NCBI RefSeq assembly: GCF_964204645.1
Contig: NC_134026.1
Location: forward strand, 16,526,150 to 16,590,149
DNA: 64,000 nt
From: Tubulanus polymorphus
Taxonomy: Eukaryota; Animalia; Nemertea
Direction of reading: 5' to 3'
The translations under genes and the position numbers were made by a program. Shown here piece after piece: positions 581-62,385 of this stretch. A model generated the notes under the pieces. That model searched no databases. It was not told the origin of the DNA and was given only the letters and a program-made list of their open reading frames with translations. Every line of letters starts with the position of its first letter. The stretch's first letter is position 1.

Positions 581-589
581 CTTTTAATC

Positions 590-1762: not shown

Positions 1763-1815
1763 GCTAGTTGAAGATATGTAATTTTTAATACTTTTTATTT
1801 AAATTCTATTATTCT

Positions 1816-2473: not shown

Positions 2474-2480
2474 TTTAATA

Positions 2481-11529: not shown

Positions 11530-11601
11530 CTAGATACAATAGAGAAAGTTTATGATTTGAAAAATACTTTTGCCAACCCTAAAGAATTGCTTTATGATTA
11601 C

Positions 11602-12147: not shown

Positions 12148-12313
12148 CTGGAATTAAGAAGGATGATCTTTGTCATAGCAAACTGCACTTCTCTTTCGGG
12201 TGCCCAACAATTCACTATATGTCCGTTAAGATCCGGAGCGAGGGGATATCATGTGTGATTTTCCTAAGAATATTTGATGAAAATAACGGTTCATGGTCCG
12301 ACATTGCGCTTAC

Positions 12314-21800: not shown

Positions 21801-21809
21801 GGTCGACGA

Positions 21810-31894: not shown

Positions 31895-32235
31895 TTAGAA
31901 TTTGAAAATGATTTAAAAGTTAAAAAGAAAAGAAAAGCAAAATTATATATCATTTTATTATAAGTGGTTCGGTTACAATTAGTTCGGTGATTATATTTTT
32001 AGCAATATTCTCGCCATTAACACCTTTAGCCATATCAATTGGTGTGCTAGGTTTAAGTTCTAGTGTATTGACTGGCATAAGCTCAAAGTTGAATATAAAA
32101 AGTAATAAAGAAAAAATAAAATCTAATATAAAAGAAATAAATTAAAAAATGCATTAAATTATATAATAAGTTTAAATGGTAATATTACAATTGAAGAGCA
32201 GGATAAATTATTAAAAGAATTAATCAAATATTAAT
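31895..32235 (+). pseudogene. membrane protein fragment, homolog of 60175..60608
   Basis: near-identical DNA (ttagaatttgaaa...gcaatattctc.cc.ttaacacctttagc). Confidence 0.7.
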
Positions 32236-32250
32236 TTTCTTATTATATAA

Positions 32251-33399: not shown

Positions 33400-33415
33400 T
33401 TTTTATAAGATATAA

Positions 33416-36232: not shown

Positions 36233-37600
36233 AAGTAACTGGTAATGATAATAATTATGTCGTAGATAATGTTGGAAGATATCTATTTAAAAAATCAATT
36301 ATAAAGATTGGACCAGAAACAGTTTTTCATTAGATGATTATCATTTATTTACGCATTATTAAGTTTTATGATTAACAAAAGAAAATAGAAACAAGGCAAT
36401 TTGATACTACGTATCTATTTCCCCCGCGATAGCCAGTAGGGAATTAATGACCCCTGAAGACACTGATCTTTGGTAAAGAAAAATGATGAGTGTATCCAGG
36501 GATAACCATACTATGAAATATCATTTTCCTGCCATGAATGATTATTTAAGAATTGAGTTTACAGGGTTTTAGGCAAAAGACGTCTACCAACCTTGACATT
36601 TGACCCTAGAACTCCAAAATCACTAATGCACATCCTCTCCCCAGGGGTAATCATTCTATGAAATAGCATTGTTCTGTTATCAATGGTTCTTCTTGAATCG
36701 TATTTACAAGGTTTCAAATGAATGACCTGTAGTGACCTTGACCTTTGGTCCTTGGACCCCAAAATCAATAGGGCACATCCTCTACTTAGGGGTAATCATA
36801 CTACATAATATCGTGGTCCTGCTATCGACGGTTCTTCTTGATCACGTTCACAAGGTTTTACACGAATGACCTGTAGTGACCTCGACCTTTGATCCTTGGA
36901 CTCCAGAATCTATAGGGCACATCCTCTCCCTAGGGGTAATCATGCTACGTAATATCATGGTCCTGCTATCAACGGTTCTTCTTGAATCGCGTTCTTAAGG
37001 TTTTACATGAATGACCTTTAGTGAACTTGACCTTTGGTCCTTGGACGCCAAAATCAAGAGGGCACATCCTCTCCCTAGGGGTAATCATACTACGTAATAT
37101 CATGGTCCTGCGATCGACGGTTCTTCTTGAATCACGTTCACAAGGTTTTACATGAATGACCTGTAGTAACCTTGACCTTTGGTCCTTGTACCCCAAAATC
37201 ACTAGGGCACATCCTCTCCCTAGGGGTAATCATACTACTTAATATCATGGTCCTGCGATCAATGGTTCTTCTTGAATCACGTTCACAATGATTTACATGA
37301 ATGGCCTGTAGTGACCTTGACCTTTGGTCCTTGGACCCCAAAATTAATAGGGCACATCCTCTCCCTAGGGGTAATCATACTGTGCAATATCATAGTCCTG
37401 CGATCAACGGTTCTTCTTGAATCGCGTTCACAAGCTCACGCGGACGGACGGACGGACGGATGCGGATACCAAGTCCCCGCTCGCAGCCTACGCCGCGCGG
37501 TGGACAATAATATGATATTTCAAGGTATCCAATCAGAAAACCAAAATAAATTAAGATCAGAAGCTAATAATGCAGTAGTAACTTATGACATAGATAAAAA
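36233..37600 (+). pseudogene. probable major capsid protein internal fragment split by the HINE insertion
   Basis: Joined flanks read NNYVVDNVGRYLFKKSIIKIG...LTKENR|NNMIFQGIQSENQNKLRS, resembling from memory the major capsid of this Polinton group. Confidence 0.5.
36391..37507. mobile_element. HINE/DINE-like element with about six 145-bp internal tandem repeats
   Basis: repeat anchors at 36721, 36865, 37010, 37155 and 37300; (GACG)n and short hairpin near end; inserted at an A|A site without TSD. Confidence 0.85.
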
Positions 37601-38080: not shown

Positions 38081-38216
38081 ATTCAGTAATACATATCATA
38101 GATTTATTTATCTCACAGATTCATCATATATATTTTATTTTTTCAAGTACTAATACAATACAGATTTATTCTTTATGTACTCAAAGTACTAAGACTACTA
38201 AAGACAACAAAGACAC
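37640..38216. repeat. AT-rich about 50-bp tandem repeats, hairpins and (TA)n at the convergent gene junction of copy B
   Basis: cacagatttattatatatattactgtttcaataat units; inverted repeat 37893-38013; (TA)n 38013-38077. Confidence 0.8.
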
Positions 38217-38239
38217 GGGGGGGGGGGGTATTAATTGAA

Positions 38240-38815
38240 ATATCTTTTACTGAGGTTATTTTGTAAGTTTATATTCATCGGCAAATTGAAGCATCAGAAG
38301 TAATTTGGAACCTTTATTATTTTTATCCGAAAAGTAATTTTTAACCTTTATTATTCATATATTCATCATGTAATTCAGTAGGTATAATTTGATTTACTTC
38401 CGGAGATTATTGCATAGATTTTTTTTATCTTTATTGTAGAATAAAACTAAAAATCTTATATTCTCCCTAAAATCTTTAACAATTGAATTATATTTTTGAT
38501 TTAAAACCCATGTTGTATTTCCAAAATGTCTCCCAGAGAAAGCTATATAGCATAGTTCACTTTCTCTAATTTTTGAATCATGTAAATTTGCACAATCATA
38601 TATGATGAATGATGTATTTGATCCTGTATAAATATCAATTGCTATTTTATTACAATTAACTAAATTTTCTTTTACAGTTTTAGGATCTAATATAATAAAC
38701 TTTTTTATCTCAACTATATCCATATTATATGTTAAATTCATTTCATAAGGAGGACAGAATAATATTATATTAGCAAAATGATTTTTATAACAAAATGTGT
38801 TTTACCACAGTTTAT
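38240..38815 (-). pseudogene. A32/FtsK-like DNA packaging ATPase
   Basis: Walker A remnant NCGKTHF; FIIYDC (degenerate Walker B); AFSGRHFG..WVLNQKY...FRENIRFLVLF. Confidence 0.85.
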
Positions 38816-39864
38816 TTATCATCATACCCTTTATATTCAACCAAACAATATTTCTTGCCACGTTATGTTTTTGTTTTCATTACTTTTTCTTTTTAGTATT
38901 ATATATCATCTGGGTTTGGTACCAGTGATAATTCTTGTTGATAAAAATAACCTAATATTTCTTCATCTTTTAGATCTTCTAATTTATAAACAAGTTTAGT
39001 TTAGTTAATATTATTTTTTTAATTTTGAATATTTCTTCAGTAAAATTTGGAGTATAACCTTTATAAAATGTTTTTCGAATGTTTTTCGATATTTAGATAT
39101 TCTAACATGTTGTCCAATTTTAAATTTAGGTTCTCCGAAATCATGTGTAACAAACACTCCATATAAATTGTTCTAAACAACCTCTAAATTATATTCTTTT
39201 CTAGCTTTTATAGGTTTCATACTAATACTTGAATGTTTAGAATTATTATAACCTTCCACTAAATCATCTTATACATCATTATATTTATATGTTTCATTAG
39301 CAGTAAAATATTTCCATATTCTAGATTTCAATGTTTTATTAAATCTTTCTATAATAGATGCTTTTTTGTCAGAGTTTGTTGAAAAATATTCTATATTGTT
39401 ATCAGATAATAATTTTCTAAAATGTTTATTATAAATTTTTTTACCTTCATCAAATTGTATCTTATCTGAAATAGCTTCTTTAAATATTAATTTGAACGCA
39501 TTAGTAACTTCTATACCAGTTTTATTTTTGATTGTAATTGACCATGCGTATCTACTGAATATATCTATAACATTTAATATCCAAAGATATACTTTATTGT
39601 ATTCGTCTAGGTATCTTCATATCTATTAAATCTGCTTGCCATTGTTGATCAATATATGAAACCATAACTTTTCTTGTTAGATAACTTCTATCTATTTTGT
39701 CATGGATTTGATTTGTTGGTTGATTTTGTAACCATACTTTTAATTCACTATATGTTATATTTTCATTATTAAATTTTATTTGATCCCAAAATTCTGAAAC
39801 ACTAGAATATGATACTTCACTCTCCGGGTTATAATATATATCTTCAATATTGTTCTTTTTTCAT
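38815..39864 (-). pseudogene. retroviral-like (rve) integrase with C-terminal chromodomain
   Basis: QQWQADLIDM, VIDIFSRYAW, IQFDEGKKFYN, KASIIERFNKTLK, KFKIGQHVRISK, KGYTPNFTEEIFKI, CLVEYKGYDD. Confidence 0.92.
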
Positions 39865-40214
39865 CTTATTTTAATCCATTAATAATAATTAAGATCAATG
39901 ATAATTTCAATGATTTTATCATTTGATTTATTTTCTGGTAATATAGGTTTATTATCATCATTATTACTATTAAATTTGAATTTATATATTACATCAGAAA
40001 ATATAATTACTGTGATTAATCCAGTTGTAATATAAAAGTTATTATTTCTCTTAGTATTAGAAGAATTAGATTGATTATTATTCGAATTAATAACAGATAA
40101 TTTCTGTGATTTATTTATATCAGTTAATTTCTTTTTCTTAACTCGTTTTAACTCAGAATATCTTTTACCTAATTTAATTTGTTTTTCAGATCTAGGCTTT
40201 TTCGTAATATAATC

Positions 40215-40794
40215 ACTAATTTATTTTACTTGATTTTTGTTCTGATTCAATATCTGTATCGATATTATCTGATTTTTATCTTTGTATTCTATAGGTTTCA
40301 TATTAGAAAATGTTATTACACCAGTAGAAATTAATGTCATTTTTCCAACTAATTGAAAAGAAGCATATCCAACCCATTTTGGTAATTCTTTCATGACTAA
40401 GTAATCATTGTTTAAATCAGTATTTAATTTATTTTCATCATTAGTTGGTATTATCCGGTTGCATACCTAAGAATAACATTTTACTATTCCATCACTAATA
40501 TAATCATTTATTCCAGCTAATCTAGCTTCTTCATATATTTTAGAATATTTTATTACTTTTTCTTTGTCCATAGAGTCTAATTCTTGATATGTTATAACTT
40601 TTACTTAGGAATTCTTTGCATTTACCACTAGCAATTAGTAATTCGAGTTGATGTTTATAATATAAATAGTATTCAATATCAATATTATTATTTTGAATAC
40701 AATTAGTTGCTACATTATCATTATTATCAGTAATACCTAAATCTTCAATTGTCCTTTCAATATCAATATTATTCTTATTGGATTTCTTAGACAT
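40215..40794 (-). pseudogene. disrupted homolog of 954..1568
   Basis: MSKKSNK...YYLYYKHQLELLIASGKC, frameshift and stops. Confidence 0.75.
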
Positions 40795-41668
40795 TTATTT
40801 TAGAAAAAAGTGAAGAAAATTTTATACTTATTCTTCAAATGATACTAGTAACTCTTTGGGTTAATACTAGCTAGTTAAGTTAAATAATTCTAGTATTAAC
40901 TAGATTTGAATATCTATTTGAAGTTATGTAATTTTTATTCAATTCTTATCAAAATCTATTTAATATAGTGTTAATTAGAATTAAATAAGAATATATTAAA
41001 ATTATAATAGAATTCAATAGCTAGTTATAGATACGTAATTCTAAATACTTTCAATATGAATTAGGATTTAATATCTCACTACTTTTGTTTATCTATAAGG
41101 AGCAATTAAATTGTCCAGATAAGTCATTTCGGATCCTTGATATTACTCCCTAAAACTGAAAATTAATTTCGAAAATAATAGAAACCGCTATTCGGGCAAA
41201 ATATCATACATTGAAAATCTATACAGTATGACAAAACAGCTAAGTCTCATTCGATGTAACATCCATAATTTCTGATTCTGCATCTTCACTTTCTTGTGAT
41301 AAACTTCTTGTTACCTAAAAGAGAAATCTATCTAGATCGTAGAATAGAATTAACTTGAAGTTGTAGTTGCCAAATATAAATTGCTGCACTTAAACATATT
41401 TAAAGGTTTCTTTTTAAGTATCCCCTTTCCCGAATTCTTAATAACAACAAAAACGGTACTTAGATTTATTGCTGGAACCGAAAACTCCGAATTGTATTGC
41501 AAGAGAGAAATCCTGTGCGTATGTCGACCACGGGTGTTCGTTTATAATGAAATTAATCAATTTTATGTGTGCAATTATGTGACAGGTGTTTTGACATACA
41601 GGCAGTTTTACGATCGGGCGTTGTTGCTGGTTTTCTAAGCGCTTAATAAAGTCTCAGTATACGGTTCT

Positions 41669-42262
41669 TTATTTGGGTCACTATTCCATTGCTCAATAAA
41701 TGTCTTTGCTTTATCTAACTGATCTAATTACAATTTCATATCTAGTTTGTTAGACTTAATTATATTTTCTTTCTTTTCGAGAGGTTTTAGATTCTTCCAA
41801 TTCCATATCAATTTCTTATTGTATTCATCATTCATGTTAAATTTAGATATCGGCAATACGTGATCTATATGGAAATAATCTCCGTAAATATTTGTGTTCA
41901 TTTCATCATCGAAATGATATACAAACCATGATTTTAAGAATTCATCCGAACAATCCAATAAATTAGATAGCGTAACTGAATGTTTATCTTAACTGAATGA
42001 ATTTGATAATCTATAACCTAGACATTGTTTTAATTTAAAATTAAAATCTGTTTGATATTTTTCTTTATGATAATTATTTTGAAACGGTTTAACATGGTCT
42101 GGATTATTTTCTTTCCATTGCTTAATTTTATCTTTGCGTGTTTCAATATTATCTCTATAATATTGTTGACTACTTACTTAATTCACACTTCGAATATTTC
42201 TTATGATAAATATTTACTACACTATGCGTAATATTTATAGTTTGTGGCTGTTTACTTTCCAT
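41669..42262 (-). pseudogene. HNH endonuclease, homolog of 1816..2473
   Basis: CSDEFLKSW...YGDYFHIDHVLPISKFNM...WNWKNLKPLEKKENIIKSNK. Confidence 0.8.
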
Positions 42263-42292
42263 TTATTATACATATTTTTTACTAAAATTGAT

Positions 42293-44293
42293 TAACATGT
42301 TATAATCCCTTTAATAATCTCATTTTCTTTCTCTTCATCCCTTTTGAACTTTAAGTATTCATCTAAATTGCAACCATAAGCAACTGTTTGAATTCCATCA
42401 TCTAATATATATCTTTTATCATCAAATGGGTTTAGACTAACTTCTTCTATTTCTTCTATAAACATTTCGTGGTACTCAGATCTTTAACATTTCATCTTAT
42501 GTTTTCTAACTTCTTCATTAAATAAACAATTGATGTTATCTTTAAAATGAATATTTTTTTCAACAAGGCTTTTTGTAATACCTTTCAATCTTTTAGATTC
42601 ATGAGTTTTATAACTATACATTTTAGATCGAATTCCAATGAACTCTATCATTTCTTCACCACCGAATTCATCCTTAAACTTCCCAGGAACTTTTCTATTA
42701 TCATCGTTAAACAATCCATGATTTTTAGGATAATTACTGAAATCCAAATGATGTTTTAATGTTTTTAAATCATCTGTTATTTAGTAGTTTTTATTACTAG
42801 TAAATTTTATCGCAGCCAAAACAAGGAATTTTGTACACTCCGCAGTCCAAAGGTTTAGATTTATTGTTTTTTACCAAAGTCTTACTAATATTGTTTTCAT
42901 AAGTGAAAATAATTTGTTTTTCCAATAAAGGGAGAGAGTGACGAAACTTTTCCAAAACATGTGCATACGGAACTACACTGAATTCTGAAATGTGTTTTTT
43001 ATTTTCTGGAGGTTTAGAATTGAAGAAAGTTCGTTTAGCCTGAAAATAGCGATTTTCAAAATGTGATCAGGGTATGCCAATTTTTTGAGTGAGTTAGATA
43101 TATGGTCAAATTCAGCCGAAAGCAAGGTTTCATCGCAGATCCGTAATGCACGGAGAAAGAGGCCTTGAGCGAGACAAATTTTGATTGATTTAGCAGTAAA
43201 CGAAAAGAAGTTAAGGTATGCCTCGGTGTTGATAGGTTTACGGTAAACTGAGCAAATCAAATGAGAATATTTATTGTGAATTAGAACATCTAAAAACGGA
43301 ATTTGGTCATTTTGTTCCCATTCAAAAGTGAATTTCAAAGAGGGATATTGGGAGTTGATGAAGTCGATAAAAGTGGTAAGATCAAAATCATTAGAAACTA
43401 AGCACTCTTTTCAGAATTCATTGTAGTTCGAAATTAAGACTGGTGTAATACGCTCTCTAGACCTTGTCAGAGTGACTAATCTTGCTGCAAGGTTTTGGAT
43501 GAGCTGGAGTCTGTGTACTAAGCCAGCATTTACACCAACTGAACATGAATTGCAGAATGTATCGTCATAAATATCATTTCATCGAATATCAAACCAGATC
43601 CTTCAAAATATTTATCTTCTACGTTACTTTTTATTTCATTATTACATTTATTTTATCTATCATCTATATGTTGTTTTAAAATAATATGTTGTGAATGAGA
43701 ATTTATATTATATATTGGTTTATCTTCAGATTTTATGAATTTAACTATTCTACGTCTGTAATTATTTTTATAATATTTTTCATATTTTCTTAATGTTTCT
43801 AATTTTCTTCTAATGTTTTACCTTCATAAAATTTAAATTCAATAGCAGCTGGTCCTATATCACTTTTAAATGCTTCGGTTATTTCAATATCTTTTTTATC
43901 ATCTAATGAATTATTATAATTTCTAACATCTTCCATGTATGGTATTTTATTGTTTAATTTATTTTTTATTCTTTTAATTGTGCTTTGTTCTTTATCATTA
44001 TTTTCATCGAAATAATCTTCACCTAAAATATCATTATTAACATCTCTAATATGATTTTTCGATTTCAAATGTTGTTCATAATATCTTTTGTTACTGAATG
44101 ATTGATTACATGTATCACATTTATATATTTCTTTTTCATTCTTAAATTCTTCTAATTTAGTTTCTAATATATCATTATTATATTGCAATTTCAATTCATT
44201 CTCTAAGTGTGTTAAAGTTGTATTAAGTCTTGCTTTTTTAGATTTATCTATAATTTTACATGTTGGACAGTTGTACTTCTTGTTTGCTTCCAT
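42293..44293 (-). pseudogene. protein-primed PolB with large internal deletion filled by foreign DNA
   Basis: N-terminus (ZnFs, IGPAA, YFEGSG) 43561-44293 and C-terminus (DFSNYP, PGKFKDE, GIRSKMYSY, NPFDDKRY) 42293-42800. Confidence 0.88.
42801..43402 (-). mobile_element. Penelope-like element fragment (RT thumb to start of GIY-YIG)
   Basis: KFTFEWEQNDQIPFLDVLI...VYRKP...YLNFFS...RALRIC; ends GVYKIPCFGCDKIY. Confidence 0.88.
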
Positions 44294-44330
44294 TTATTAT
44301 ATAAATTTTTTTATTAAAATTGATTTTATA

Positions 44331-44679
44331 TTATTCGAAATCAATATCATGGTGTCCTTTTTCATTCTTACCTTTGTATATGAAATAGAAATCACCTGAA
44401 TATAATTCTTCTAGATCTTCACTATATAATCTATAAAATCTATCTGGTAAATATGTTCTGAATTTATATTTATTTCCTTTTAATCCTTCATACTCTCAGT
44501 GAAAAACTAATTTATTACCAAATCTATGAGTAATTGTTTCAATATTTGTAATTAAATATTTCTAATGTAATGTTGATTCTGTTAACTTTTTGAATTTATA
44601 ATCTACAGATTTGACATTTGTAGTATCTTTAATTCTATTTTAGAAATCACTGTGTATTTATTTACTCTCCACTTATCAT
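44331..44679 (-). pseudogene. small terminal gene of copy B (unknown function)
   Basis: fragmented reading frame ...ITHRFGNK...KFRTYLPDRFY...FIYKGKNEKGHHDIDFE; shares upstream motif with neighbouring genes. Confidence 0.45.
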
Positions 44680-45600
44680 ACATATTTCTTATTAAAATTG
44701 ATTTTCATAAATATGATATTCATTTATATAATGTTCATATATATGAATATTGTTAGAAGTAATGGGGAAGTGTTTTTTCAGATTAAAGGTTGAAAAGTTG
44801 AGTGAAAAATAAAAATTAAATTCGAGCGTGTGAGAATTTATTTCAATTTTTATGAGCTCGACCTTTCGACTGAGGCGAAATATTTGACTAGGCGAAAGAG
44901 GAGAGTGAATCTTTGAAAAAGATAAAATCTGCGTGGGATGCAGATCAAGCGCGAAATAGTAAGTTTTGTCATATTTCAGTTTCCAGATTATTGCATCACA
45001 CCACTCAATGCTGCGTAGGGAAGTTCATGGACATCAAAATAAAACAAAAGAATCTTATACCGGGATAAACCTCTGTACACGAAAGATGTGCCTTTGATGA
45101 GGAATTAAGATGCATGTTGTGTAAATTTAAATAGCTTTATTTCCTATTTATATATCAAATATTGAAAATTGTATTTTTGTGAAATTGGTAGACATATAAA
45201 TTCAAATATAAAACTTATCAATTCATAATACTTTTTTTGATATTTCTATTAGCCAATAATCTCTTTCTTAGTCTTTTTTGTCGTCTTTGAAGTCGATGAT
45301 TTCTTGGCAGCAGCTCTGGTATTCGATGCTGAAGAACAACGCAAATTTGCCTTGCTGACACTGTATAATTGTTTACGTAGATTTGAACCGCCCTTTAGCC
45401 GTTTACCAGCCTTTTAACTCAATTTCTCGAAGTGACCCACAATAAATCCATTTATACGCGCATGTTTATACTTTTTTTTATAAAATCTTGCCAAACCAAA
45501 TAAATGTTCGGTGACAATTCTTGGGCTAATGCCAATCCAAGTCTGGTAGTTGTCAAGTTAACGAAAACAGATTCCATCCATTTGTTCGGCAGAACTTCAG

Positions 45601-49700: not shown

Positions 49701-49997
49701 GACCATATATATCATCTATTAAATGCATTATGAAATAAGATTCGATTTTGAATGAAGTGAATTTGACGCGTCGTTTGACGAGTCAAAAATGCTATTTTAA
49801 TTTTGACATTTTTTCCATGCAATACGAGTGCTTGGGGTGCTAGAGCACCAACCCCTCCCCCTTGGAAAATTAACATCGTAATACCCATGTTTATGTTTCA
49901 AAATTGCCCGGGGATGAGAAGAGAATATTCAAAATTTTGAACCACGCATTATGCATTATGATGCTTTAAAGGGAGTGAAACTCCTAGACGAACCTAC

Positions 49998-50555
49998 CTC
50001 TTGATATCTGCGATATTACAGTTTTGGCAAGTTCTGTTCGCCATGCATTCGTGTAGTTTGTGATGAGGAATTTGAAGCTCAATGGGACGACCTTGCCTAA
50101 TACATCCGACTTCTCGTCAAAGGTTATTGTGTATATTCGGATACTGCTTAGGGCTAAGCAGTTAGCTATCTTTCGTAGTTTCCATTCATCCATTGTTCCC
50201 CCACTACCAACAACGATTACCGTTTTAGGGACCTTTTTTCTGGATGCCAGTGACTTAAACACGATTTCCCGTGCATGAGCTAATGCCACCTCTGAACTGA
50301 CATCGGTACTGCTAGATTGGGAAAGTTTCAACAAATCAAACCGTTCGGCAATGCAGTGCTGATTGTCGCATATATCAAGGTCAATACCGGGTCTGACTTC
50401 CGTATCAAACGGGTATACGGCTAACCTCGTAAAGTCGAGATGAACCGAGCTTGTGAGTATTAATTCCTTGACGATGTCTTTAAGAGCTTGCAACTTCATC
50501 GGACTAACGGCCGCCGACTTGTCAATATACAGTGAAATATCAATTGGAGAACTAT
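49998..50555 (-). CDS. host exon: VWA domain
   Basis: PIDISLYIDKSAAV...TRLAVYPFDT...RKKVPKTVIVVGSG; ttgcag/gtaggt; 558 nt. Confidence 0.9.
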
Positions 50556-50624
50556 CTGCAATATAGAGTATCATAATGCTTAGACAATAACTTATGGAAG
50601 CGCAGAAGATATATTCAAGTTTAC

Positions 50625-50741
50625 CTAAGCATTCTGGTGACCTATCTCCTGGGGGGCACTTGCATTTGAACGAACCATCGGAATTGACACATGCCCCGCC
50701 ATTGGGGCAAACATTTCTGATACTAGTGCATTCATCGAGGT
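50625..50741 (-). CDS. host exon: calcium-binding EGF domain
   Basis: DLDECTSIRNVCPNGGACVNSDGSFKCKCPPGDRSPECL; ttatag/gtaaac. Confidence 0.9.
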   Translation of the reverse strand, partial: TSMNALVSEMFAPMAGHVSIPMVRSNASAPQEIGHQNA

Positions 50742-50831
50742 CTATAAATTATACATCAATTTTTTGTACGATACAAAGCATGTTTCTCTTTCTCGAATCT
50801 CAGGTATTGCTATTTCTCATTAATTGTTTAC

Positions 50832-50912
50832 CTTCACACATTTCGTGCGGATGTGCTCTGTCACTAGAAGGGCCCCTCCAAACGCTGTGATAACCGTGTT
50901 TACAGTGGGACT
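50832..50912 (-). CDS. host exon: short Cys-containing exon
   Basis: SHCKHGYHSVWRGPSSDRAHPHEMCE; ttacag/gtaaac; 81 nt, phase 1-1. Confidence 0.7.
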
Positions 50913-51015
50913 CTGTAATAATAGACAGTGATGCAGAGTATAAATGGACGTATGCGTATTTAAACGAACCTTTCGGATATTAAATGGAAATAATAAGTAA
51001 AAGACTGTTTCTTGC

Positions 51016-51301
51016 CATTAATTGCGCGAGATATGAGATTTCCTGTAATTGCATTGAGTTCTTTTTCTGTTAATGCTGTAAATGAGGTGACTTCCGTTAG
51101 ACCATTTACAGGAATCATGTCAGCTACCACATTATTTTTTGATTTTGTAGTGACTGCTACCATAGCGATATCTTCGTTAAGATATCGCGTGATCGAATCT
51201 AAAGCTCGGTCTTCGTTTGTGTCGGTTCCAGATCCGACGTATATTACCATTTTCTTTACAGCAGGTCGCGCCTTGACTCCATTCAAGATTTCGGCATTTG
51301 C
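51016..51301 (-). CDS. host exon: C-terminal half of VWA domain (predicted GC donor)
   Basis: ANAEILNGVKARPAVKKMVIYVGSG...ISRAIN; ttag acceptor; gcaag donor at the position equivalent to paralogous exon ends. Confidence 0.75.
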
Positions 51302-51415
51302 CTAACGTACGACATACGCAAGTAACAGGTATAAACATCGAAGATAAATGTATATATACAACATGTATGTTTCTAGATCAGTATTGTCATCACTTAACCA
51401 TCATTCGGGGCGTAC

Positions 51416-51690
51416 CTTTTCGAGAGCTATTGACATATGCGGTGGCTTATTTCGCCAAGTCCACAGGCTGATATCATTTGAGATACAACTAGGATCCTCG
51501 CATCTATCTAACTCGGTAGCGTACCAAACTGTGTCCGCATAAGCTAGCGTTGCTATCTTTATATATCGACCATGGTGCATAAACAGCTTCTCAGTTAGTA
51601 ATTTGAAAATTGCAAATGCTTTAACCCATTCCTCGTGGCTTAGAGCATTTGAACAATCCAGAATCATCACAATATCTATTTGTCCGACGC
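51416..51690 (-). CDS. host exon: N-terminal half of VWA domain
   Basis: QIDIVMILDCSNAL...IKIATLAYAD...HMSIALEK; ttatag/gtacgc. Confidence 0.85.
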
Positions 51691-51787
51691 CTATAAAAGA
51701 AAAAAAAACATACAACCCCAACTCATTCGGTGATATGATGATTTGAACAGTCTGGATAAATAATGGAATAATAAGAATCAGTATTAC

Positions 51788-51895
51788 CCAAACAGTTAGT
51801 CCTGTTCCTTGGACAAGGGCACCAAAATCCTTTATCAAGATCAGTACACTCTCCTTGGTTAAAACATGGATTAGCATTGTCACACTCATCGGTAT
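51788..51895 (-). CDS. host exon: calcium-binding EGF domain
   Basis: DTDECDNANPCFNQGECTDLDKGFWCPCPRNRTNCL; tttag/gtaata; 108 nt. Confidence 0.9.
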
Positions 51896-52337
51896 CTAAA
51901 AGTATTTGTCGATTGAGTAATAATGGAATAGGTAATCGCAATTTGTCATGGTATATCCAGCTTTGTGATTTGCCACATCAAGGATTTGTGCAAATATTTC
52001 GTTGAAATCAATCTTATCAGTACATGACGTAGGCTATTTCAAAGGAGCACCACCTAGACGGTGAACACATATAATGGATAGTGGATGCATATGGGCGACT
52101 AGGTACAAACTTCTGAAGTACCGAGTTTAGCAAATTTAGGAAATGGCCATACAAAATTGATAGCGTGTTTTAAGCTGGTTTCTCAGAAGTAACGAGAGAG
52201 ACAGTTGTTTAATTTAACCGCTTTCTAGCAGTAAAGTAGTACCGACAATACAAGTAATTAGAAGATGGCGTTTTCAAACCAGAGTACTAGAGTACTAGCT
52301 CCCACTCATCACCACAAGTAATTTTTTTTCCTTATAA

Positions 52338-55300
52338 ATGGGGGAGAATGAACACCAGACAGAAAACAATAATGTTAATAAAAATCAATTTTATTGTCCA
52401 TATTGTAAAAAATACATCATGAAAAATCATATAAAAAATGTTATAGATTTTGAAACTTCAGAAAATTCCAATGAAAGAAAAGAACGATTAGAAAATATGA
52501 ATGTGGATGAAATTAAATGTGAAGTTTGTAATGAATTTATAGTAAAAAGGAATTATAATAGACATCTCGAATCACAAAAACACCATCAAAATTTGAGTAA
52601 TAATGTTTTAGGAGAAGATTATTTCGATGATAAACCTCAACAAGTTAAAAAACCAACTTCAAAAACTAAATCCATTTCAAATAAACCCTACATGGAAAAT
52701 GTTAGAAATTATATTGATTCAATAGAAATAAAAGATACAATTGAAATTTTAGAAACAATACATAGTAAAATTGGACCTGCAGCTATTATATTTAGATTTT
52801 TTAAAGGTACAACAATAGAAGATTATAATAAATTTAATGAAATAATAGAAAAAATACTAGATTTGATAACAGATGTTGAATATCCAAAAATTAGTATCTC
52901 TGGGAAAGTAAGTTTTATAAAGTCAGAAGAAAAAAATGGATTATAATATTCAAACACTCTCTGAAGAAATAATTTCAAAAACACAAATAGAAGAGAAGTT
53001 AGAAAAAATATTTAATGAATTTAAACGTCATATTGAAGAAAGATATTTTGAGGGTTCTGGTTTATCATTAAATGAAATTATATATTTAGATTTAAATGTT
53101 TATAATGCAAAAAGAAATAAAACATCAAAAAGTAATAAAATGTTTAAAAATGATACAAACTTTATAACAGAAAAGGATATTAAAGCATCATCTTATATTA
53201 AATTACCATTAACATCAAAAGCAGTAATACATGTTCAAAATGAAGATAATAAATGTTTTCTATGGTCAATTATTAGTTGCTTACACCCAACAGAAGATAT
53301 TAAGCATAGATTTAGAATAACAAATTACCGGGAATATGAAACATTATATAAAATTGATCAATATCCAGTAACTATAAAAATGATACCCAAAATAGATTTT
53401 TAATAATCTAAAAATTAATGTATTCGAATTAATGCAATTACCAAAGACAAAAGGCGAAAATTGGAAGCTTTATATTTAACAGAATATTATGATGATGAAA
53501 ATGCTATAGATTTGTTATATTACAAAAAAGATGAAAATGAACATTATATGTGGTTAAAACAAATTGATTTATTCTTTAGAACAGAAAGTGATTTTAACAG
53601 TCATAAAATTTATCTATGTAGAAAATGTATATCTAAATTTAGAACTGAGAATGCGTTACTAAAACATAAAGAATTATGTGATAATTATGTGATAATAAAG
53701 ATTTTTGTAAATTAATAATGCCACCAAGATTATAAATTGAAATTTACTAATCATAAATTTAAGAATATTGTTCCATTTGTAATATATGGGGATTTTGAAT
53801 CGTTGAATAAAGAATTAACCGATCAAGATAGAAAAGAAATATATAACAAAAAGCAATTATTAAAATTAATGGATAAAGGAAATGAATTAAATGAAGACAC
53901 AACACAAGACCCACCAATTATAAATACAATTAAAAAAAATCATCAAAGAGCTGCTGCTTCTGGAATTTACATAAAATCAAATTATCCCGAATTATATGGA
54001 AGTCAATATATTTCTTTTAGAGGTGAAAATGTAGTTAATGATTTTTGTAATAAAATAATTGAATTAGAAAGTGATTTTGCAGAATTATTAAACAAAAATA
54101 AAAGAATAGTTATGACAAAAGAAGATGAAATTGATTTTAATTATGTAACTCATTGTTGTTATTGTGAAAACGTTTTTATTCATTTGATAAAAAAGTTAGA
54201 GATCATGATCATTTAAATTCAAAATACCGCGGAGCTGCTCATGAAGATTGTAATTTAAAAGCTAAGAAAGTTAATTTCGTACCAATATTATTTCATAATT
54301 TATCAGGTTATGATACCCATATATTTATAAAACAATTATCAGGAAAATTGGGCGCAATTAATCAAGAAATAGAAGAATATAATGCTATGAATGGTGCAAA
54401 TTTAAGAAAATATGATTTTAAACAATTGGCTTAATCATCTGAAAATTATATTTCATTTCAATTTGGTTGCATTAGATTTTTAGATTCTTATAGATTTCTA
54501 GCAAGTTCATTAGATAATTTATCAAAAAGTTTAGTTGATAATGATTTTATAATAACTCGACATTACTATCCAAATGAACAAGATTTTAAATTATTGAGAT
54601 ATAAAGGCGCAATTCCTTATTCATTTTATAAAACACATGATGATTTTAATGTAACAGAATTATTAAAAGATCAATTTTATGATCAATTAAAAGAGGAGTA
54701 TGTGAAAGATGAAGTGTTTAATAGAACATTAAATATTTGGAACCATTTTATGATGAAAAATCATGGTGAATTAGTTGATTTATATTTAAAATCAGATGTT
54801 ATGATATTGGCTGACATATTTGAAAAATTCAGAGAAGTTAATTTAAATCATTTTAATGTTGATCCTTGTTATTGTTATTCAAGCCCCGGTTTAACCTGGC
54901 AATGTGTTTTAAAATATACAAATGTAGAATTAGATTTATTAAAAGAACCAGACATGGTTTTATTATTTGAAAAATCAATTAGGGGTGGAATTAGTGGTGT
55001 TATGGCAGATATATATTTTAAAGCAAATGATGAATATAAATTATTATATATTGACGCCAATGATTTTTATGGTTGGGCAATGATGCAACCTCAACCATAG
55101 AAAAATTTTATATTAACAGAAGTTGAAAATGATGATAAATCTGACTGGGAAAGCGCAATTGCGAGTTTAAAAGATGAAGCACCAATTGGCTATTTCTTTG
55201 TAGTTGATTTAGAATATCCTGAAAATATAAAGTTTAAAACAAGAAACTAACCTTATTGCCTAGAACATTTAACTGTAGATGATAGTTATTTAAGTGAATA

Positions 55301-57367
55301 CCAGAAGAAAATAAAACCGAAAGATCATGTTTTTACAGAAAAATTAATACTTACTCAAAATAATAAATACAATTATATCGTTCATTATAGAATGTTAAAA
55401 TTTTATCTAAAACAAGGAATGAAATTAAAGAAAGTACATAGATATATTGAATTTAATCAATCGAAGTGGTTAGAAAAATATATAGATTTCAATACTCAAC
55501 AGAGAACAATATCTAAAACAGATTTTGAAAAAGATTTTTTTAAATTAATGAACAATAGTTTTTATGGAAAAACATGTGAAAATATTAGAAATAGAAATGA
55601 TATTGAATTAGTAAATAATTCTGAACGATTAAGACATTTACAATCAAGTCCTAGACATTTAGGAAATAAAAGATTTGAAGATTATTTAACAGCAGTTAAA
55701 TTAAAAAGAACGTCAATGAAATTTAATAAACCTATATTCATTGGTTCAAATGTTTTAGAAGTATCAAAATTATTAATGTATGATTTTTATTATAATGTTT
55801 TACAACCACTTTTTGGGGAAAAGCATATTGAAATATTATATTTTGATTCTGTAACAGCTGACACCCCAATATTATTAAAATGTAATGATAAAATATTGAT
55901 AAGAAGAATTTCAGAAATAATTCCAAAACAAAATGAATGTTATATTTCGTATGGTGAAAAAGAATTAATACAAATAAATGAATTAATGGATGTTTGGACA
56001 AGAAACGGATGGAAAAAATTAAAGAATATTATTAGGCATAAAACAAATAAGAAAATCTATAGAGTTAGAACTAAATTAGGGTTTGTAGATGTTACAGAAG
56101 ATCATAGTTTAATTAAACGAAATGGCGATGAAATAAAACCAACTGATATAAAAATTGGAGATGAATTATTACATAAAAGATTTTTCCAAAGAATGAATCA
56201 TATGTCATTCAACGAAATTATTGATAATATTTATAATATAGAACCTGAAACATTAGAAGAAAAAGAATATTTTATCAAAGGATTTTTCATTGGTGATGGT
56301 TCAGCAGGTGTGTATAAATATGTTAATCGCACTCAATATTGCTGGTATTTATGCAATCAAGATTTGAAATTATTAGAAAGAATAAAGAAATTCTGTGAAG
56401 AAGTTTATTCACATAAAAAATTTAAAATCATAGATGTTATGAAATCATCACAATGTTATAGAATACATGTGAATAATACTAAAGATTTTGCAATTAAATA
56501 TAATGATGAATTCTATATTCATGCAATAGTGAAAAGTAATACTTCAACAAAAGAAAAGATAGTTCCAGATTATGTATTAAATGCAAAAGATAATTTAAGA
56601 AAATGGTTCTTCATTGGGTTCTATGCTGCAGATGGTTCAAAAAGTTTCAAAAACCACAAAACAATATCTTTAGCTCAAAAAGGAAAAGTTACTATATCAG
56701 GATTGAATATATTATGTAATTCATTAGGTTTTAATATGAATATTGGATTGATTAAATCTAAACCAAATTGCTTTAATTTAAGCCATGTAGAAAATGAGTT
56801 AACTGAAGAAGTTAAAGATTTATTCGAAATATATAACCCAACAGATTATGTTTATGATTTATCATCTGAAGATGGCACATTCAACTGTGGATTTCCATTA
56901 ATTGCGTTCAATACTGACGCCTACATACTAAAAATCAAGACAAATGATATAACAAAAGACTTAAAAACATCAAAACATCATTTTGATTTTAGCAATTATC
57001 CCAAAGATCATGAACTATTTAGCAATGATAATAAAAAGATTCCTGGTAAATTTAAAGATGAATTAGGGGGTGATGAAATGATTGAATTTGTTGGGATAAG
57101 AAGTAAAATGTAAAGTTACAGAACAAAAGATCATGAAGCTAAAAAATTAAAAGGATTAAAAAACATGTAGTTGATAAACACATAGAATTTAAAGATTATA
57201 TAAAGTGTTTATATAACTCAATTGTAATGAAACATAAAATGAATTGTTTAAGATCAGAAGATCACGAGATGTATATTAATGAAGTTGAGAAACTAGTTTA
57301 AATCCATTTGATGATAAAAGACATATTTCAGATGATGGTATAAAAAACATTACCTTATGGTTATTAA
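52338..57367 (+). pseudogene. polB: protein-primed family B DNA polymerase (pPolB), full length, intein-containing, with stops/frameshifts in the exteins
   Basis: NEDNKCFLWS; ExoI VIYGDFES; RDHDH...YRGAAHEDCNL; ExoII FHNLSGYD; FLDSYRFL; ExoIII YLKSDV; motif A YIDANDFYGWAM; motif B KLMNNSFYGK; motif C YFD|TD; PGKFKDE; NPFDDKR. Confidence 0.95.
55848..56912 (+). mobile_element. intein (355 aa) with LAGLIDADG homing endonuclease inserted in pPolB motif C
   Basis: Block A SVTADTPILL; block B VDVTEDHSL; LAGLIDADG motifs FIKGFFIGDGS and FFIGFYAADGS; block F YVYDLSSEDGTF; C-terminal Asn followed by Thr; removal restores YFDTD. Confidence 0.95.
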
Positions 57368-57735
57368 AATGGATCAATATCATCAAACTCGAAATCACTA
57401 TTGGTTCCTTCTTTTTCATTTAATTGTTCTTGTATAATTTGTTTAGGTTCTTCCATTTCATTTTTCTCATTTAAATAAAGTTCTATCTTGTACCACATTT
57501 CATCTCGCTCTCTTTGTTTCTTTTTGTTTGTTAATTCATCAAATGGAATTATAATATCGATGTTTAAATAATTTACAATCTTATTTAAAAAGAATTCATA
57601 ATTAATTGAATCTGTTATTCTATTATCCACATAATATCTTAATATTTGTTTGAATATGTCTTTTATATTTTCAATATCTTTTTCTGTTAATTTAGGTTTT
57701 TTATAATAATTGTTAAATAATAAATATAAATGCAT
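57364..57735 (-). CDS. hypothetical protein of copy C
   Basis: 123-aa AT-rich ORF convergent with pPolB. Confidence 0.5.
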   Translation of the reverse strand: MHLYLLFNNYYKKPKLTEKDIENIKDIFKQILRYYVDNRITDSINYEFFLNKIVNYLNIDIIIPFDELTNKKKQRERDEMWYKIELYLNEKNEMEEPKQIIQEQLNEKEGTNSDFEFDDIDPF

Positions 57736-57798
57736 TTTCTCTTCTTGTGTGTTAAATGTTGATGGAATAATTGTTTTTATTATATCTTTTTAGTTATT

Positions 57799-58398
57799 TC
57801 ACCATTTTAATTTTCTATTATTTTCAAGCCATTGCTTATATTCTGGTGTATGATCTTCCATAGAAAATATATTAAATATTTCATCTAGATATTTTAATTT
57901 TGGTTCTATGAGAAAATCTCTAGTTTTTTCATCACCCCATGAATTTTTTTCCCATCCACATACATTACAAAATATCACAGAACCTTCTTGTCTTAAGTAC
58001 TCATAAATACATTTTGGACATTTTTGTCTATCATTTCTTAGTAATAGCTCTTCGTTAAGCTCTTGGTATTTTCTTACGTTTTCTTTATGTTTTATTGTTC
58101 TATTATGTAGATTTGAATTACTTGTTGTAATAATCAATTTATAATATTTACAATAATATGTTTTTCTTGTTAATTCATTGTATTGTTTTTCCAACTTTTT
58201 AAGCGTTTCTTCATTATCTGGCAACGTTTTCTCATATTTAATTTTTTCTAATATTTTATTTTGTCTTTCATTGAATTCAGTTTCAAATTTATTAGAAATT
58301 TTATCTATATGTATTTTACGAAATTGATGATTTTCCCAAGCTTCTATATTTTTAGGACTATATTTCATTCGACAAGGCTCGCAGAAATGATCTGTCAT
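57799..58398 (-). CDS. zinc-finger/zinc-ribbon protein of copy C
   Basis: FCEPC...HQFRKIH; YYCKY...HNRTIKH; KCPKC...FCNVCGW. Confidence 0.6.
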   Translation of the reverse strand: MTDHFCEPCRMKYSPKNIEAWENHQFRKIHIDKISNKFETEFNERQNKILEKIKYEKTLPDNEETLKKLEKQYNELTRKTYYCKYYKLIITTSNSNLHNRTIKHKENVRKYQELNEELLLRNDRQKCPKCIYEYLRQEGSVIFCNVCGWEKNSWGDEKTRDFLIEPKLKYLDEIFNIFSMEDHTPEYKQWLENNRKLKW

Positions 58399-58404
58399 AT
58401 TATC

Positions 58405-58680
58405 CTTGTCATATAATAAGAAAGGTCTTTTCCAAATAATTTCAGATTCAACTTCAGCAGAATTACTATTACTTTCATAACTATCAACATTAGCCGTTGC
58501 GCCATTAATTTTACACTTCTCTCAATGTTTTTTAACATAATTTCTTGAGAATAATTTATTACATTTTGGGCAGTTTATTTTAGGGGGTTTATAATTTTCA
58601 TCATGTTTTTTCATATGTCGAGCCATATTACTTTTTCTTAGAAGTTCACCACAAATTTCACATGCTATCTTCTCATCCAT
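58405..58680 (-). pseudogene. small C2H2-type zinc finger gene
   Basis: MDEKIACEICGELLRKSNMARHMKKH...NCPKCNKLFSRNYVKKH*; TAAATG start. Confidence 0.6.
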
Positions 58681-58748
58681 TTATTTAGGAAAAATTTTAT
58701 TAAAATTAATTTTTAGTGATTAGCGGTAATTTTTTTATGTTATGAATA

Positions 58749-59350
58749 ATGGTAGAATTAAAAGAATACAGAATATTTGTTGATTCTAGAAGACTTACAA
58801 ATTATAAATCTCATAATTTACTAGTACAATTAGATAGAGAATTTAAGGATTGTGTGGATTGTGTTGATTTAAAATTAGTAAATATAAGTTTATGTAATTC
58901 TTTTTATAATGTATCGGGTAAATGTATTGAACATAGATTGTTTATTTTTGATAGAAATGCCGATAAATGGTATCATATATTTATAAGACCAGGATTATAT
59001 AATTTAGAAACATTAGCGCAAGAAATTAATAGGGCGCGGCTGCTGGATTTGTAATTAAATTTTCAAAAAGTGATATCAATAATAAAGTAAGAATAAAGTT
59101 AGATAAAGATGAACAACATAAATTTTTAGTTAAAAAACCTATGGCTAAACTGTTAGGAATTAATCTAAATAAACTTTATTCAAATGTTGACATTGCACCA
59201 AACTTAATACCTTACACGCATTTTTATAATTATTGCAATTTAATTGATCCTACAAAAACATTCGAAGCAACTAAACATATAACTTGTAATTCTGGTTTAT
59301 TAAACATTTTACCATTGAAGAATGTTAAATGGAACGCAAATAAATTATAA
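58749..59350 (+). pseudogene. probable minor capsid (penton-like) protein, frameshifted
   Basis: LVNISLCNSFYNV...IRPGLYNLETLAQEI...AKLLGI...YCNLID...LLNILP pattern typical of Polinton-like pentons (recalled, not searched). Confidence 0.55.
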
Positions 59351-59582
59351 TTTAACAGAATAATTATAATTTAAAGAAAATTATAATATAGAAAAAGTAA
59401 TTGATTTAATTAAAACGCCTTTAGAATATTATGAATTAAATGAAGATGGAATTATTGATGATATTAAAAACATATTAACCAAAATATATGATAATCATAA
59501 AAGTAGTAATGAAATAAATGTTGAAATAATCATAACTAAGAAAAATAAATATTTTGAAGATAGTAATTTTTTTGATAAATAA

Positions 59583-60152
59583 ATGAGTGATAATAAGTGG
59601 ATAATAACTGGATTATATAATGGAGCATTACTATCAGTTGGAACTGTTGATTATTCAATGGTATTTAAAAAAAGTATTTAAAATGGGAAGTGTTAATGTT
59701 GATAGATTTGATATGATATTTTAAAATTAACATTAGCTTCTGTAATTCTAACTACTATAGGAACAGCAATTGTTAACGCTTTAGCATTTACTGGTGGTAG
59801 TTATTTATTTAGGCATATAGATAAAAATAGTTCATTAAAAGAACAAAAAAGACATAACTTAGCATTAGAGAAATACAATAAAGCAGCAGAAGAATACAGA
59901 GAAAAGAGGCAAAACTATATGGATTATATTAACAAGGAATTATATGATCAGAAGATTTCACATAGAGATTTTCAATCAGTTGATGATGCAATGAGTTTAT
60001 ATAACGCGGTAACCAATAAAGAAAAATTACATCTATACAAACCTAAATTATTAGATTATTATACCCCAGGTAAATAACAACAGAAATATGAAATAATTTG
60101 GATTTTAGGTGAAACAGTTATTGTTATATTTGTTGCATATAAATTTACTAAT
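59583..60152 (+). pseudogene. two small hydrophobic/coiled-coil genes of Polinton-like element
   Basis: MSDNKWIITGLYNGALL...; GTAIVNALAFTGGSYLF...EQKRHNLALEK...DFQSVDDAM...PKLLDYYTP. Confidence 0.55.
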
Positions 60153-60174
60153 TAGTAATTTTTTTGTTAGATAA

Positions 60175-60608
60175 ATGGATGATAAAGTTGATAAAATTGA
60201 TATTATTCCCCATGATATGAATAAAACTAAATTAAAAATATATTTAGAAAAACAAATATTAGAATTTGAAAGTGACTTAAAGATAAAAAAGAAAAAATAT
60301 TTAAAAAGTAAAATTATATATTATCTTATTAATAGTGTTTCAGTTACAAATAGTTCTGTAATAACATTTCTAGCAATATTCTCACCTTTAACACCTTTAG
60401 CTATATCAATTGGTGTGCTAGGTTTAAGTTCAAGTGTTTTAACCGGTATAAGTTCAAAATTAAATATAAAAAGTAATAAAGAAAAAATTAAAAATAATAT
60501 AAAATAAATTAATAAATTGAAGAATACACTAGATTATATAATGAGTTTAAATGGCCATATAACAGTTGAAGAACAAGATAAATTATTAAAAGAATTAATA
60601 AATTATTA
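60175..60608 (+). pseudogene. coiled-coil plus two-TM protein, premature stop at 60507
   Basis: ORF 60175..60507 with hydrophobic hairpin; homolog at 31895-32235. Confidence 0.6.
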
Positions 60609-60625
60609 ATTTTTCAATTATATAA

Positions 60626-60960
60626 ATGGGGTTTCCAAAAGCTTTCCAATATAATAAATCATATAGATATTTAATTCCACCTATAAATTTTTAATAGTTT
60701 TATAACATATAAAAATGTAGTTTTACCTTCATTAATTAATTTAGAAATTTATGTTACTGAAACAAAGTTTTTCATTTCTAGAATGGAAAATATATTTAAT
60801 ACATATGAAGTTACTTTTACTCGAGGTGAATATAATATATATAAAATAAAATGATGAAATATGAAATATGAAATATTGGCAGAATCAATTACATTTTGCT
60901 GTTTATTGTGCAACAACAGGGTGTGGTATAAGTTGGAATGATCACTTGAATAATTTATAT
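60626..60960 (+). pseudogene. truncated homolog of 32251..33399
   Basis: atggggtttccaaaagctttccaa start; QLHFAVYCATTGCGISWN. Confidence 0.65.
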
Positions 60961-61779
60961 AACAATTTGTCTTATAAGGGTTTTCTGTTTCTTCACAGAA
61001 AACCCTATTGAAATTCGCGTGATTATTATTTTTTTCCCTTTTCCACATAGTTTTTGTTAAAAGTGTAAAGGCTTCCTTACCTTACCGCTGTCGCCGATAC
61101 AATCCGTATGGTGTCCTTCAGCTCACTTCAATCTCCAGATACTGCATGGGAATTTTGATAAATCCACGTTATAAAGGCACTGTCGAGCCGTAAACATCGG
61201 AAATTTGGCTCCATTCAATTAGTTGCCATGTTGTGTTTTCTTACCGATATTTCTCTCTTCTTTTCGAGGAAGAGCTATCGAATAATTCCCTCTCTTCTCC
61301 ACAATCAATTTCAAAGTCAATTTTATGAATTTATTGCTCAGCGGGTCCGAGTCCAAGAGTTTGCGAGTCCGGCGTTCGCGTGTCTGACAGGTTTACGGGC
61401 ATTTGTTTGTTACCTCTTTAATATGTTTGATTTCTTGTTATTCCGCTTATTTTATTTAAGTATATTGCTGATCAGTTCATGTAACCAAAAGCGTCAATAA
61501 ACAGACTTTGAATTGATCAAGTTTAAATCAAGGTCGTTGAGTCGCGGAAGGCTACTAGAATTACGTTCGTCTTCGTCTCAGAGAGAAAACAAACGACAGA
61601 AAAGTATCAGGTGATTATCGATAGCCTACAACGGTACACACAGTTGACAAACAGTGTTAGGCCTGTGCCGGTTGGTGCGTACTGGGACTAAATATACTGG
61701 TTGGTCAGTTGGTTCGGTTGTGAAGTGTGGAAGCTAAGATTATAAGAAAGCCTACCGGTATTTATTTGTCTATAGGCCT

Positions 61780-62385
61780 AGAAGCCAATACCATTTTAAG
61801 TACGTAGTTGTTAACCGCACGTGACTGTACGGTGATCTCCACAGGTTAACCGCGTACGTGAGGTCCCTACTAAGTTTATAATGCCATACGTGAGTTCCTA
61901 GTAGCCAATACCATTTTAAGTACGAAATTGTAATGCGTACGTGACTGTACGGTGATATCCACAGGTTAACCGTACGTGAGTTCCCTACTTACGCCGTACG
62001 TGAGTTCCTAGTAGCCAATACCATTTTAAGTACGAAATTGTAACGCGTACGTGACTGTACGGTGATATCCACAGGTTAACCGTACGTGAGTTCCCTAAAA
62101 ACGCTGTACGTGAGTTCCTATAATCTGCAAACGCGCATGCGTAAAAGAATAGAGTTTGGGTTAGGTGAGGCTAGGCTATTTGTAAATCAAATTTCATCCA
62201 CCCACCAGTTACGTTCTGTGGCACAGTGGGTAAATCACTGGACTACTACTGGATTTTTTTTTCGTTTGGTTTCGAATCCCAATATTGCAAGTCCTAGCGT
62301 CAACGTACTCACATATAGCTTACCTGTAGAAATCACCGTACAGTCACGTACAGGTAACAACAGCGTTTTAAGTATTAAGTGAGTA
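61780..62385. repeat. about 110-120-bp tandem repeats with an inverted copy (probable non-autonomous DNA transposon)
   Basis: agccaataccattttaagtacg at 61782, 61903 and 62013; inverted gtacgtgactgtacggtgat copy near 62330-62350. Confidence 0.7.

Follow-up and report, generated by a model that had tools for sequence, protein, structure and literature searches.

A predicted self-splicing intein, likely to spread by homing, at the motif C site of a Polinton protein-primed DNA polymerase

We analyzed a 64,000-nucleotide stretch of DNA (the window) and find, in the protein-primed PolB (pPolB) gene of a Polinton remnant, an intein placed at the pol-c (motif C) site. From its sequence we predict that this intein is self-splicing, and we consider it likely to spread by homing; the probability that we attach to this reading is roughly 0.78. 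The insert lies on the plus strand at positions 55848–56912 and its translation is stop-free over 355 residues, running from SVTADTP to FPLIAFN, with the following parts:

55848..56912, plus strand: intein of 355 aa, in which a LAGLIDADG endonuclease with two motifs interrupts the Hint splicing domain
56094..56105, plus strand: block B TEDH (Thr83, His86), read from the sequence and invariant in all eight aligned inteins
56268..56303, plus strand: first LAGLIDADG helix, FIKGFFIGDG, read from the sequence; helix 136–150 in the model
56604..56639, plus strand: second LAGLIDADG helix, FFIGFYAADG, read from the sequence; helix 248–266 in the model

The features of a class 1 (canonical) intein are present: the N-terminal Ser (Ser1), the block B TxxH, the block F Asp (within YVYDL), the terminal Asn, which is preceded by Phe, and Thr at position +1 in the C-extein. 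Likewise, the two LAGLIDADG helices have acidic ends, the catalytic-type Asp150 (codon 56295) and Asp262 (codon 56631), and the fold is I-DmoI-like (the monomeric, two-motif type). Each aspartate is invariant in 8 of 8 aligned inteins, and both are present in all nine cluster representatives that cover the complete intein. The coordinates, the length of the insert, Ser1, TEDH, the two LAGLIDADG aspartates, YVYDL, the terminal Asn and the +1 Thr had all been given in the original prediction and match the sequence; the prediction was silent on the penultimate Phe and on the breaks found elsewhere in the polymerase gene.

Hint and LAGLIDADG profile searches had been named as a check on the prediction, and both types of profile scored above cut-off: TIGR01445 intein_Nterm (NCBIfam) with 30.2 bits (cut-off 24.5) and LAGLIDADG_3 (Pfam) with 31.2 bits (cut-off 22.5). 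The Pfam profile Intein_splicing gave an E-value of 2.3e-6 and 27.9 bits, below its cut-off of 35.8. The top sequence match of the intein in the PDB is PI-PkoII (E 2.7e-6). An AlphaFold model built on the 8-sequence alignment (pLDDT 73, pTM 0.79) resembles, as judged by Foldseek, archaeal endonuclease-bearing inteins over most of its length, with 7qsu as the top match (E 2.6e-15, TM 0.62); the TliVMA, PhoVMA, PI-PkoII and PI-PfuI inteins (E 1e-9 to 1e-15) and I-DmoI are also among its partners. The penultimate residue is Phe and not the usual, non-universal His; among 93 extracted relatives, this position holds Lys in 46, His in 32, Ser in 8, Phe in 2 and other residues in 5. The GC content of the intein (0.25) does not differ clearly from that of the exteins (0.21 and 0.28). 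Sequence and model together confirm 55848–56912 as an intact endonuclease-bearing intein, for which splicing is predicted.

The ORF at 55392..57113 (573 aa) that contains the insert is only the last open piece of a broken polymerase gene, which comprises:

52338..57370, plus strand: whole protein-primed PolB gene, broken (tblastn with full-length relatives, stop-to-stop map, DNA_pol_B_2 above cut-off)
55251..55847, plus strand: N-extein, an open pPolB palm stretch with motif B that ends in EILYFD; 91% identical to the intein-less P0123/P0272
56913..57110, plus strand: C-extein, beginning with TDAY (TDAYIL); premature stop at 57111

The DNA_pol_B_2 match bears out the protein-primed host that had been claimed, and the pol-c site holds equally well: the insert is in frame at motif C (YFD/TD) and splits its two catalytic aspartates, so that splicing would be obligatory. 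A 152-aa N-extein query retrieved 5449 relatives; among the 120 listed, the insert is present only in P0002, and two end before the site. The closest of the listed relatives without an intein (P0123, 91%; P0124/P0125, 79%; P0126, 73%) have an uninterrupted YFD/TDS, which fixes the boundaries of the intein and places the insert between the motif C aspartates. The N-extein is also 41–54% identical to the Polinton pPolBs of spiders, a beetle, a pearl oyster and a gorgonian. Among the intein-free polymerases, P0127, P0128 and P0130 carry the source labels Bartonella sp. and Sulfurimonas sp., and are likely eukaryotic or viral contigs that were mis-binned into bacterial genomes.

A nuclease inserted without splicing activity, comparable to the HNH and VSR domains in nematode, oomycete and mollusc pPolB2, would have precedents in Polinton polymerases, as described in the main text of 10.1101/2023.08.22.554363. 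We regard such an origin of the present insert as scarcely credible given that the Hint fold and all splice-junction residues are present, and that the motif C aspartates are separated in several carriers that are full-length open polymerases of 1476–1693 aa, an arrangement that would be unworkable unspliced.

The polymerase gene as a whole contains stops at 53401, 53713–16, 54432, 55098, 55248 and 57111, and frame changes near 52930, 53400–53460, 54170–54210, 57150 and 57290. These roughly 11 breaks all fall outside 55251–57110 and leave the window copy unable to encode a working polymerase; the window copy is a dead polymerase in which the frame of the intein is still open. The flanks within 55251–57110 are mosaic: identity to P0272 is 57–80% in upstream pieces and reaches 91% over the 198 residues that precede the intein; of the two, P0125 (88%) is closer than P0272 (82%) to the 66 residues that follow it. 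At position +3, the window copy shares an Ala with the intein carrier P0279, where empty relatives have Ser. With about 11 breaks over 5032 bases, the probability that the 1065 bases of the intein are break-free is 0.07. Together with the mosaic flanks, this is no more than suggestive of a recent refreshing of the dead copy by homing, and we do not build on it.

The polymerase belongs to one of two Polinton remnants for which we could assign further genes:

52235..60975 (ends approximate), no strand assigned: Polinton remnant with the intein; 21–25% GC versus about 38% outside, with a depth step in the reads
57364..57735, minus strand: VLTF3-like late transcription factor ORF (Pox_VLTF3, 30.1 bits, cut-off 25)
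58749..59347, plus strand: broken ORF; no Pfam match, Atlas look-alikes without names
38200..44800, minus strand: sibling Polinton remnant with integrase (39272–39616), A32-like ATPase (38397–38801) and pPolB

The sequence AGTAGT at 52235 may be the terminus of the intein-bearing element. No terminal inverted repeat and no 6-bp target duplication were found for the window copy, which is consistent with truncation. By motif, the ORF at 58749..59347 resembles what we take to be a Polinton minor capsid (penton) protein; Atlas searches with two ORFs of the element returned only clusters without names. The integrase and the packaging ATPase are absent from the intein-bearing remnant and are seen in the sibling, where both matches fall below the Pfam cut-off (rve, E 1.2e-6; Pox_A32, E 1.6e-3). 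The element had been labeled a Polinton-like virus; the kind of polymerase and element stands, and the name is better replaced by Polinton/Maverick in view of the rve and A32-like ATPase matches in the sibling. Judged by sequence, the family looks like Polinton/Maverick. Like the invertebrate Polinton/Maverick elements (adintoviruses), it has a related pPolB, with putative integrase and ATPase matches, below cut-off, in the sibling copy; unlike them, it contains an intein, the copy is truncated and decayed, and no Pfam or named Atlas match to a major capsid protein or an adenovirus-type protease was found among the part of the open pieces scanned in these truncated remnants.

The sibling polymerase has lost its middle, the intein site with it, and a retroelement-like piece stands in its place. 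The sibling was therefore ruled out as an empty allele, the motif C region being absent. The retroelement-like fragment spans 42800–43560, has no Pfam match and is presumably of the Penelope type, by its motifs. Three further AT-rich Polinton remnants of related families are found at 1–3500, 31894–34500 and 38200–44800 of the window; where they share sequence with one another or with the main element, identity is 66–83%.

The element is flanked directly on its left by a gene of the host:

49984..51895, minus strand: host gene that has spliceosomal introns and encodes VWA and calcium-binding EGF domains

Exons of a VWA/EGF host gene also lie at 11582–12172 (minus strand). The three introns of the left neighbor have the borders GT-AG, GT-AG and GC-AG and are skipped by a contig in sequencing run X4, and its EGF_CA and VWA domains match collagen VI, Notch and fibrillin best. 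The animal-type context that had been claimed is found in this neighboring gene, and the host of the element is taken as an animal. A decayed LTR retrotransposon piece at 21767–23264, with matches to an integrase zinc-binding domain and DUF5641, is one that we take to be of the BEL/Pao type. The window also contains arrays of a ~145-base repeat (36384–37494 and 12914–13612) and a 110-base tandem repeat (61763–62120) with an inverted partner (62307–62366), all probably host repeats.

We examined read data to evaluate the linkage of the element to this DNA. In run X1, a low-depth contig of 2537 bases crosses from the host gene to position 52282, 48 bases past the putative terminus, and supports integration at this place. 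The proposed link to the host is supported at the left boundary; a long read bridging both ends of the element was not seen. Run X5 consists of whole-genome reads from another study with the same species label, used at a read likeness of 90%. Its depth is 8–9 over the host gene, 249 in the N-extein bin, 236 and 147 in the intein bins and 192 in the next bin. The intein is present at 17–28 times the depth of the host gene (single-copy), which indicates a multicopy family, although reads from related families or from free virus may contribute to this depth, and the host flank may be under-mapped. The junction between the 5' extein and the intein is bridged in 4 of the 23 contigs listed (three runs of one study), and the 3' junction in none of them. 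The original prediction had also called for alleles with and without the intein: empty alleles are found in relatives, and within the species itself no joint that skips the intein was found among the 15 joints listed, with 536 more beyond the listing.

These data also bear on whether the block is animal chromosomal DNA at all, or instead a contaminant, a free virus joined to the host in assembly, or the DNA of a non-animal host. Such an origin would be consistent with the absence of a long read spanning both ends among the reads seen, and the high depth could include extrachromosomal virus. It is nevertheless very unlikely, since the roughly 11 breaks in the gene are unlike a replicating virus, several related remnants are interleaved with host DNA in the window, the X1 contig joins the host gene to the element, and the surroundings include both a VWA/EGF gene with introns skipped by the X4 contig and the retroelement piece at 21767–23264.

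Database searches returned 22 further clusters with related inteins, mostly in protein-primed polymerases. Among the 120 longer intein homologues listed, eight are inserted at this motif C site of a protein-primed polymerase: P0002 (62% identity), P0003–P0006 (47–48%), P0008, P0011 and P0078. Most of the other listed homologues follow YGD in RNA-primed PolB. A search with proteins of similar length added 14 clusters of the same type (38–74%), which were judged by identity and flanks, and only two of these 14 cluster representatives were placed in a tree. The first intein tree was a quick, unrooted LG+G4 tree of 93 rows, with 28 of the 120 matches not extracted; in it, the eight pPolB rows lie on one side of a branch with an SH-aLRT of 100, and they adjoin, with support 90, a group of 23 inteins from RNA-primed PolB whose C-terminus is similar. 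In an unrooted 214-row tree, 13 pPolB-type rows group together (SH-aLRT 99), with the sister group unresolved. As judged by these trees, the pPolB inteins placed in them form one clade among the giant-virus-type pol-c inteins.

The best viral loci with a related intein, at 41%, are in giant-virus MAG contigs, and together with the nesting of the clade they suggest a giant-virus donor. YGD precedes the related intein at 179 of the 186 loci whose flank could be read. A protein-primed polymerase was found at none of the loci (at least 201) with a related intein in viral, metagenome and genome contig scans; a contig scan with P0272 gave no match, and a phage collection gave two weak matches only. 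A profile search of 50% representatives returned 3384 matches, and none of the 141 newly listed from it is in a pPolB, probably because the carriers sit in clusters with intein-free representatives.

One carrier departs from the others: the polymerase of P0005 shares no more than 22% identity with any of them, and its intein groups with those of the window and of P0002 (SH-aLRT 95 and 91). Based on these sequences, P0005 likely represents a jump of the intein between distant Polinton polymerase groups.

Related inteins were also observed at non-allelic sites that are similar to motif C: in an ADP-ribosylglycohydrolase (P0030; GGD/TDT), and in type II topoisomerases (P0007, P0104, P0109 and P0113), where DxD/TDG mimics motif C. 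In addition, stand-alone intein ORFs were found (P0276, P0281, P0287, P0316, P0317, P0319, P0324, P0345, P0346, P0349, P0350 and P0355), in clusters of 55 and 14 members and on contigs of up to 825 kb. They have their own Met 11 residues before the intein and, in the four that are complete, just 4–7 residues after it, with flanks that are similar to the polymerase site, and in the 214-row tree they nest with the intein of P0003. These ORFs possibly represent an intein and a short conversion tract that moved out of the polymerase.

We analyzed the distribution of the intein on a host-polymerase tree of 50 rows (10 carriers and 40 intein-free polymerases, picked from the listed relatives). Intein presence changes eight times on this tree, with at least seven of the changes forced by well-supported branches, and is no more clustered than shuffled labels (72–90 of 500 shuffles are as low). 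A single carrier clade is rejected with a p-AU of 1e-62, the long-branch P0005 being included. At depth, the intein tree mostly follows the host-polymerase tree.

The strongest sign of mobility comes from within families, here at the protein level. The P0004 cluster has 136 members, on contigs of up to 1.0 Mb, and of the 15 members listed, seven have the intein, six are without it and two end short of the site. Between carriers and non-carriers, identity is 98–99.7% for residues 1–1000, falls to 89% over the 41 residues that lead up to the site and to 75% over the 30 that follow, and is back at 97% at the end; the nine fixed differences in 1191 positions all fall within −7 to +44 of the site, and the six intein-free copies represent at least three different local sequence types. 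Homing with co-conversion, or resistant empty alleles, would leave local differences of this kind. In the P0006 cluster, P0261 is empty, with flanks that are identical to those of the carrier P0258 at 563 of 565 and 169 of 169 positions, and would be either an uninvaded or a precisely emptied site.

Much of this pattern could also follow from an intein that splices and does not home, i.e., one that was gained once long ago, inherited, and lost piecemeal by recombination with intein-free families around motif C. The deep congruence of intein and host trees is in line with such a history, as are the local types of the six empty P0004 copies, which independent replacements would give, and the near identity of P0261 to its carrier relative. 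We consider this history unlikely because both endonuclease aspartates are retained among inteins that are only 40–62% identical, the P0005 jump requires mobility, and the copies that remain intein-free depart from the carriers precisely at the presumed target, which resistance would predict. Under the argument of the homing cycle, endonuclease aspartates are hard to retain without selection for cutting.

We therefore return to the preferred reading, a pol-c intein that splices and spreads by homing. Here, Ser1, the block B His, the terminal Asn and the +1 Thr would perform class 1 splicing in intact family members, and the LAGLIDADG domain would cut empty motif C codons, with the carrier copy used in the repair. 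The many Polinton copies in each nucleus would serve as donors and targets. The intein would have originated in a giant-virus-type RNA-primed PolB, via the shared YxD/TD motif, and its lineage would then have been carried along one Polinton polymerase branch, with repeated gain and loss and at least one jump to a very distant polymerase (P0005). Counting against this reading are the penultimate Phe, the Intein_splicing score below cut-off, the intein tree that follows the host tree, and the dead window copy. A broader proposal is that the intein acts as a natural gene drive among Polinton copies, is derived from a giant virus, and has left conversion tracts, resistant alleles, jumps and an escape of free-standing inteins; we hold this to be slightly better than an even chance. 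If true, no intein family before this one would have been found to reside in the chromosomal DNA of animals, nor any in protein-primed polymerases.

Several known systems can be compared with the present one. The Mimivirus PolB intein, as given in the accessible part of Ogata et al. (2005, PMC549080), is located at the pol-c site YGD/TDS (position III) and has 351 aa. The intein described here is like these Mimivirus/Nucleocytoviricota pol-c inteins, so far as the accessible descriptions go, in its site, its similar length (355 aa), its Ser, Asn and +1 Thr, and its LAGLIDADG domain; it is unlike them in its DNA_pol_B_2 protein-primed host, its own clade and its presence in animal chromosomal DNA as part of a multicopy element. 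Klebsormidium, Tetrabaena and Hondaea have inteins in endogenous viral DNA polymerases (Gallot-Lavallee et al. 2023, PMC10710043), which are comparable in that a viral polymerase intein is cargo in a eukaryotic nuclear genome, with two algae and a labyrinthulid protist as hosts, unlike the animal here. None of the terms Polinton, Maverick, adintovirus, protein-primed and metazoa occurs in the text or two supplement files of PMC10710043.

For Polinton polymerases, HNH and VSR insertions in pPolB2 have been described (Jeong et al. 2023, 10.1101/2023.08.22.554363), and the words intein, Hint, homing and LAGLIDADG do not occur in the main text of that report. These inserts likewise place a nuclease domain within a Polinton polymerase, but as presented in that main text they are bare nucleases, whereas the insert in the window comprises a complete Hint and LAGLIDADG arrangement in the active site, with empty alleles. 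In the accessible part of Krupovic et al. (2024, PMC11071308), the nucleases inserted into polinton pPolBs are suggested to result from intein invasions, and no such intein is described. The part of a 2018 survey available to us (PMC5784728) gives 0 inteins in Metazoa, which agrees with the near-absence of metazoan inteins that had been claimed, and places the viral inteins in four families of NCLDV, Iridoviridae among them, plus unclassified viruses. The accessible parts of PMC12220804, PMC13768754, PMC3671162, PMC5718144, PMC2777158 and PMC10991399 add nothing on Polinton or animal inteins. Hint-type inteins in Polinton polymerases, or in the chromosomal DNA of animals, were not found reported in a literature search with subscription journals, InBase and Repbase outside its range, and in this respect the original prediction, by which no intein had been described in a Polinton/adintovirus pPolB, holds. 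Its further suggestion of a route for inteins into animal chromosomes stands for an intein that arrives as viral cargo and does not extend to host genes, as no animal host gene with an intein was seen.

What is new is (i) the protein-primed host, (ii) the animal setting and (iii) the visible polymorphism of filled and empty sites; the working mode and the allele group are those of known PolB inteins. Viral inteins within other eukaryotes' nuclear genomes, and in iridoviruses that infect animals, are already known.

The 2018 survey counts no animal inteins, and this find bears on the reason. A multicopy, apparently active intein in animal Polintons would mean that such elements do reach animal cells; the barrier to animal inteins would then lie elsewhere, for example in the target sites of host genes. 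In families where filled alleles occur beside empty ones, homing, co-conversion and resistance could be measured directly within the genome of an animal. Finally, the shared intein would document gene flow between giant viruses and Polintons, both of which must have shared a cell.
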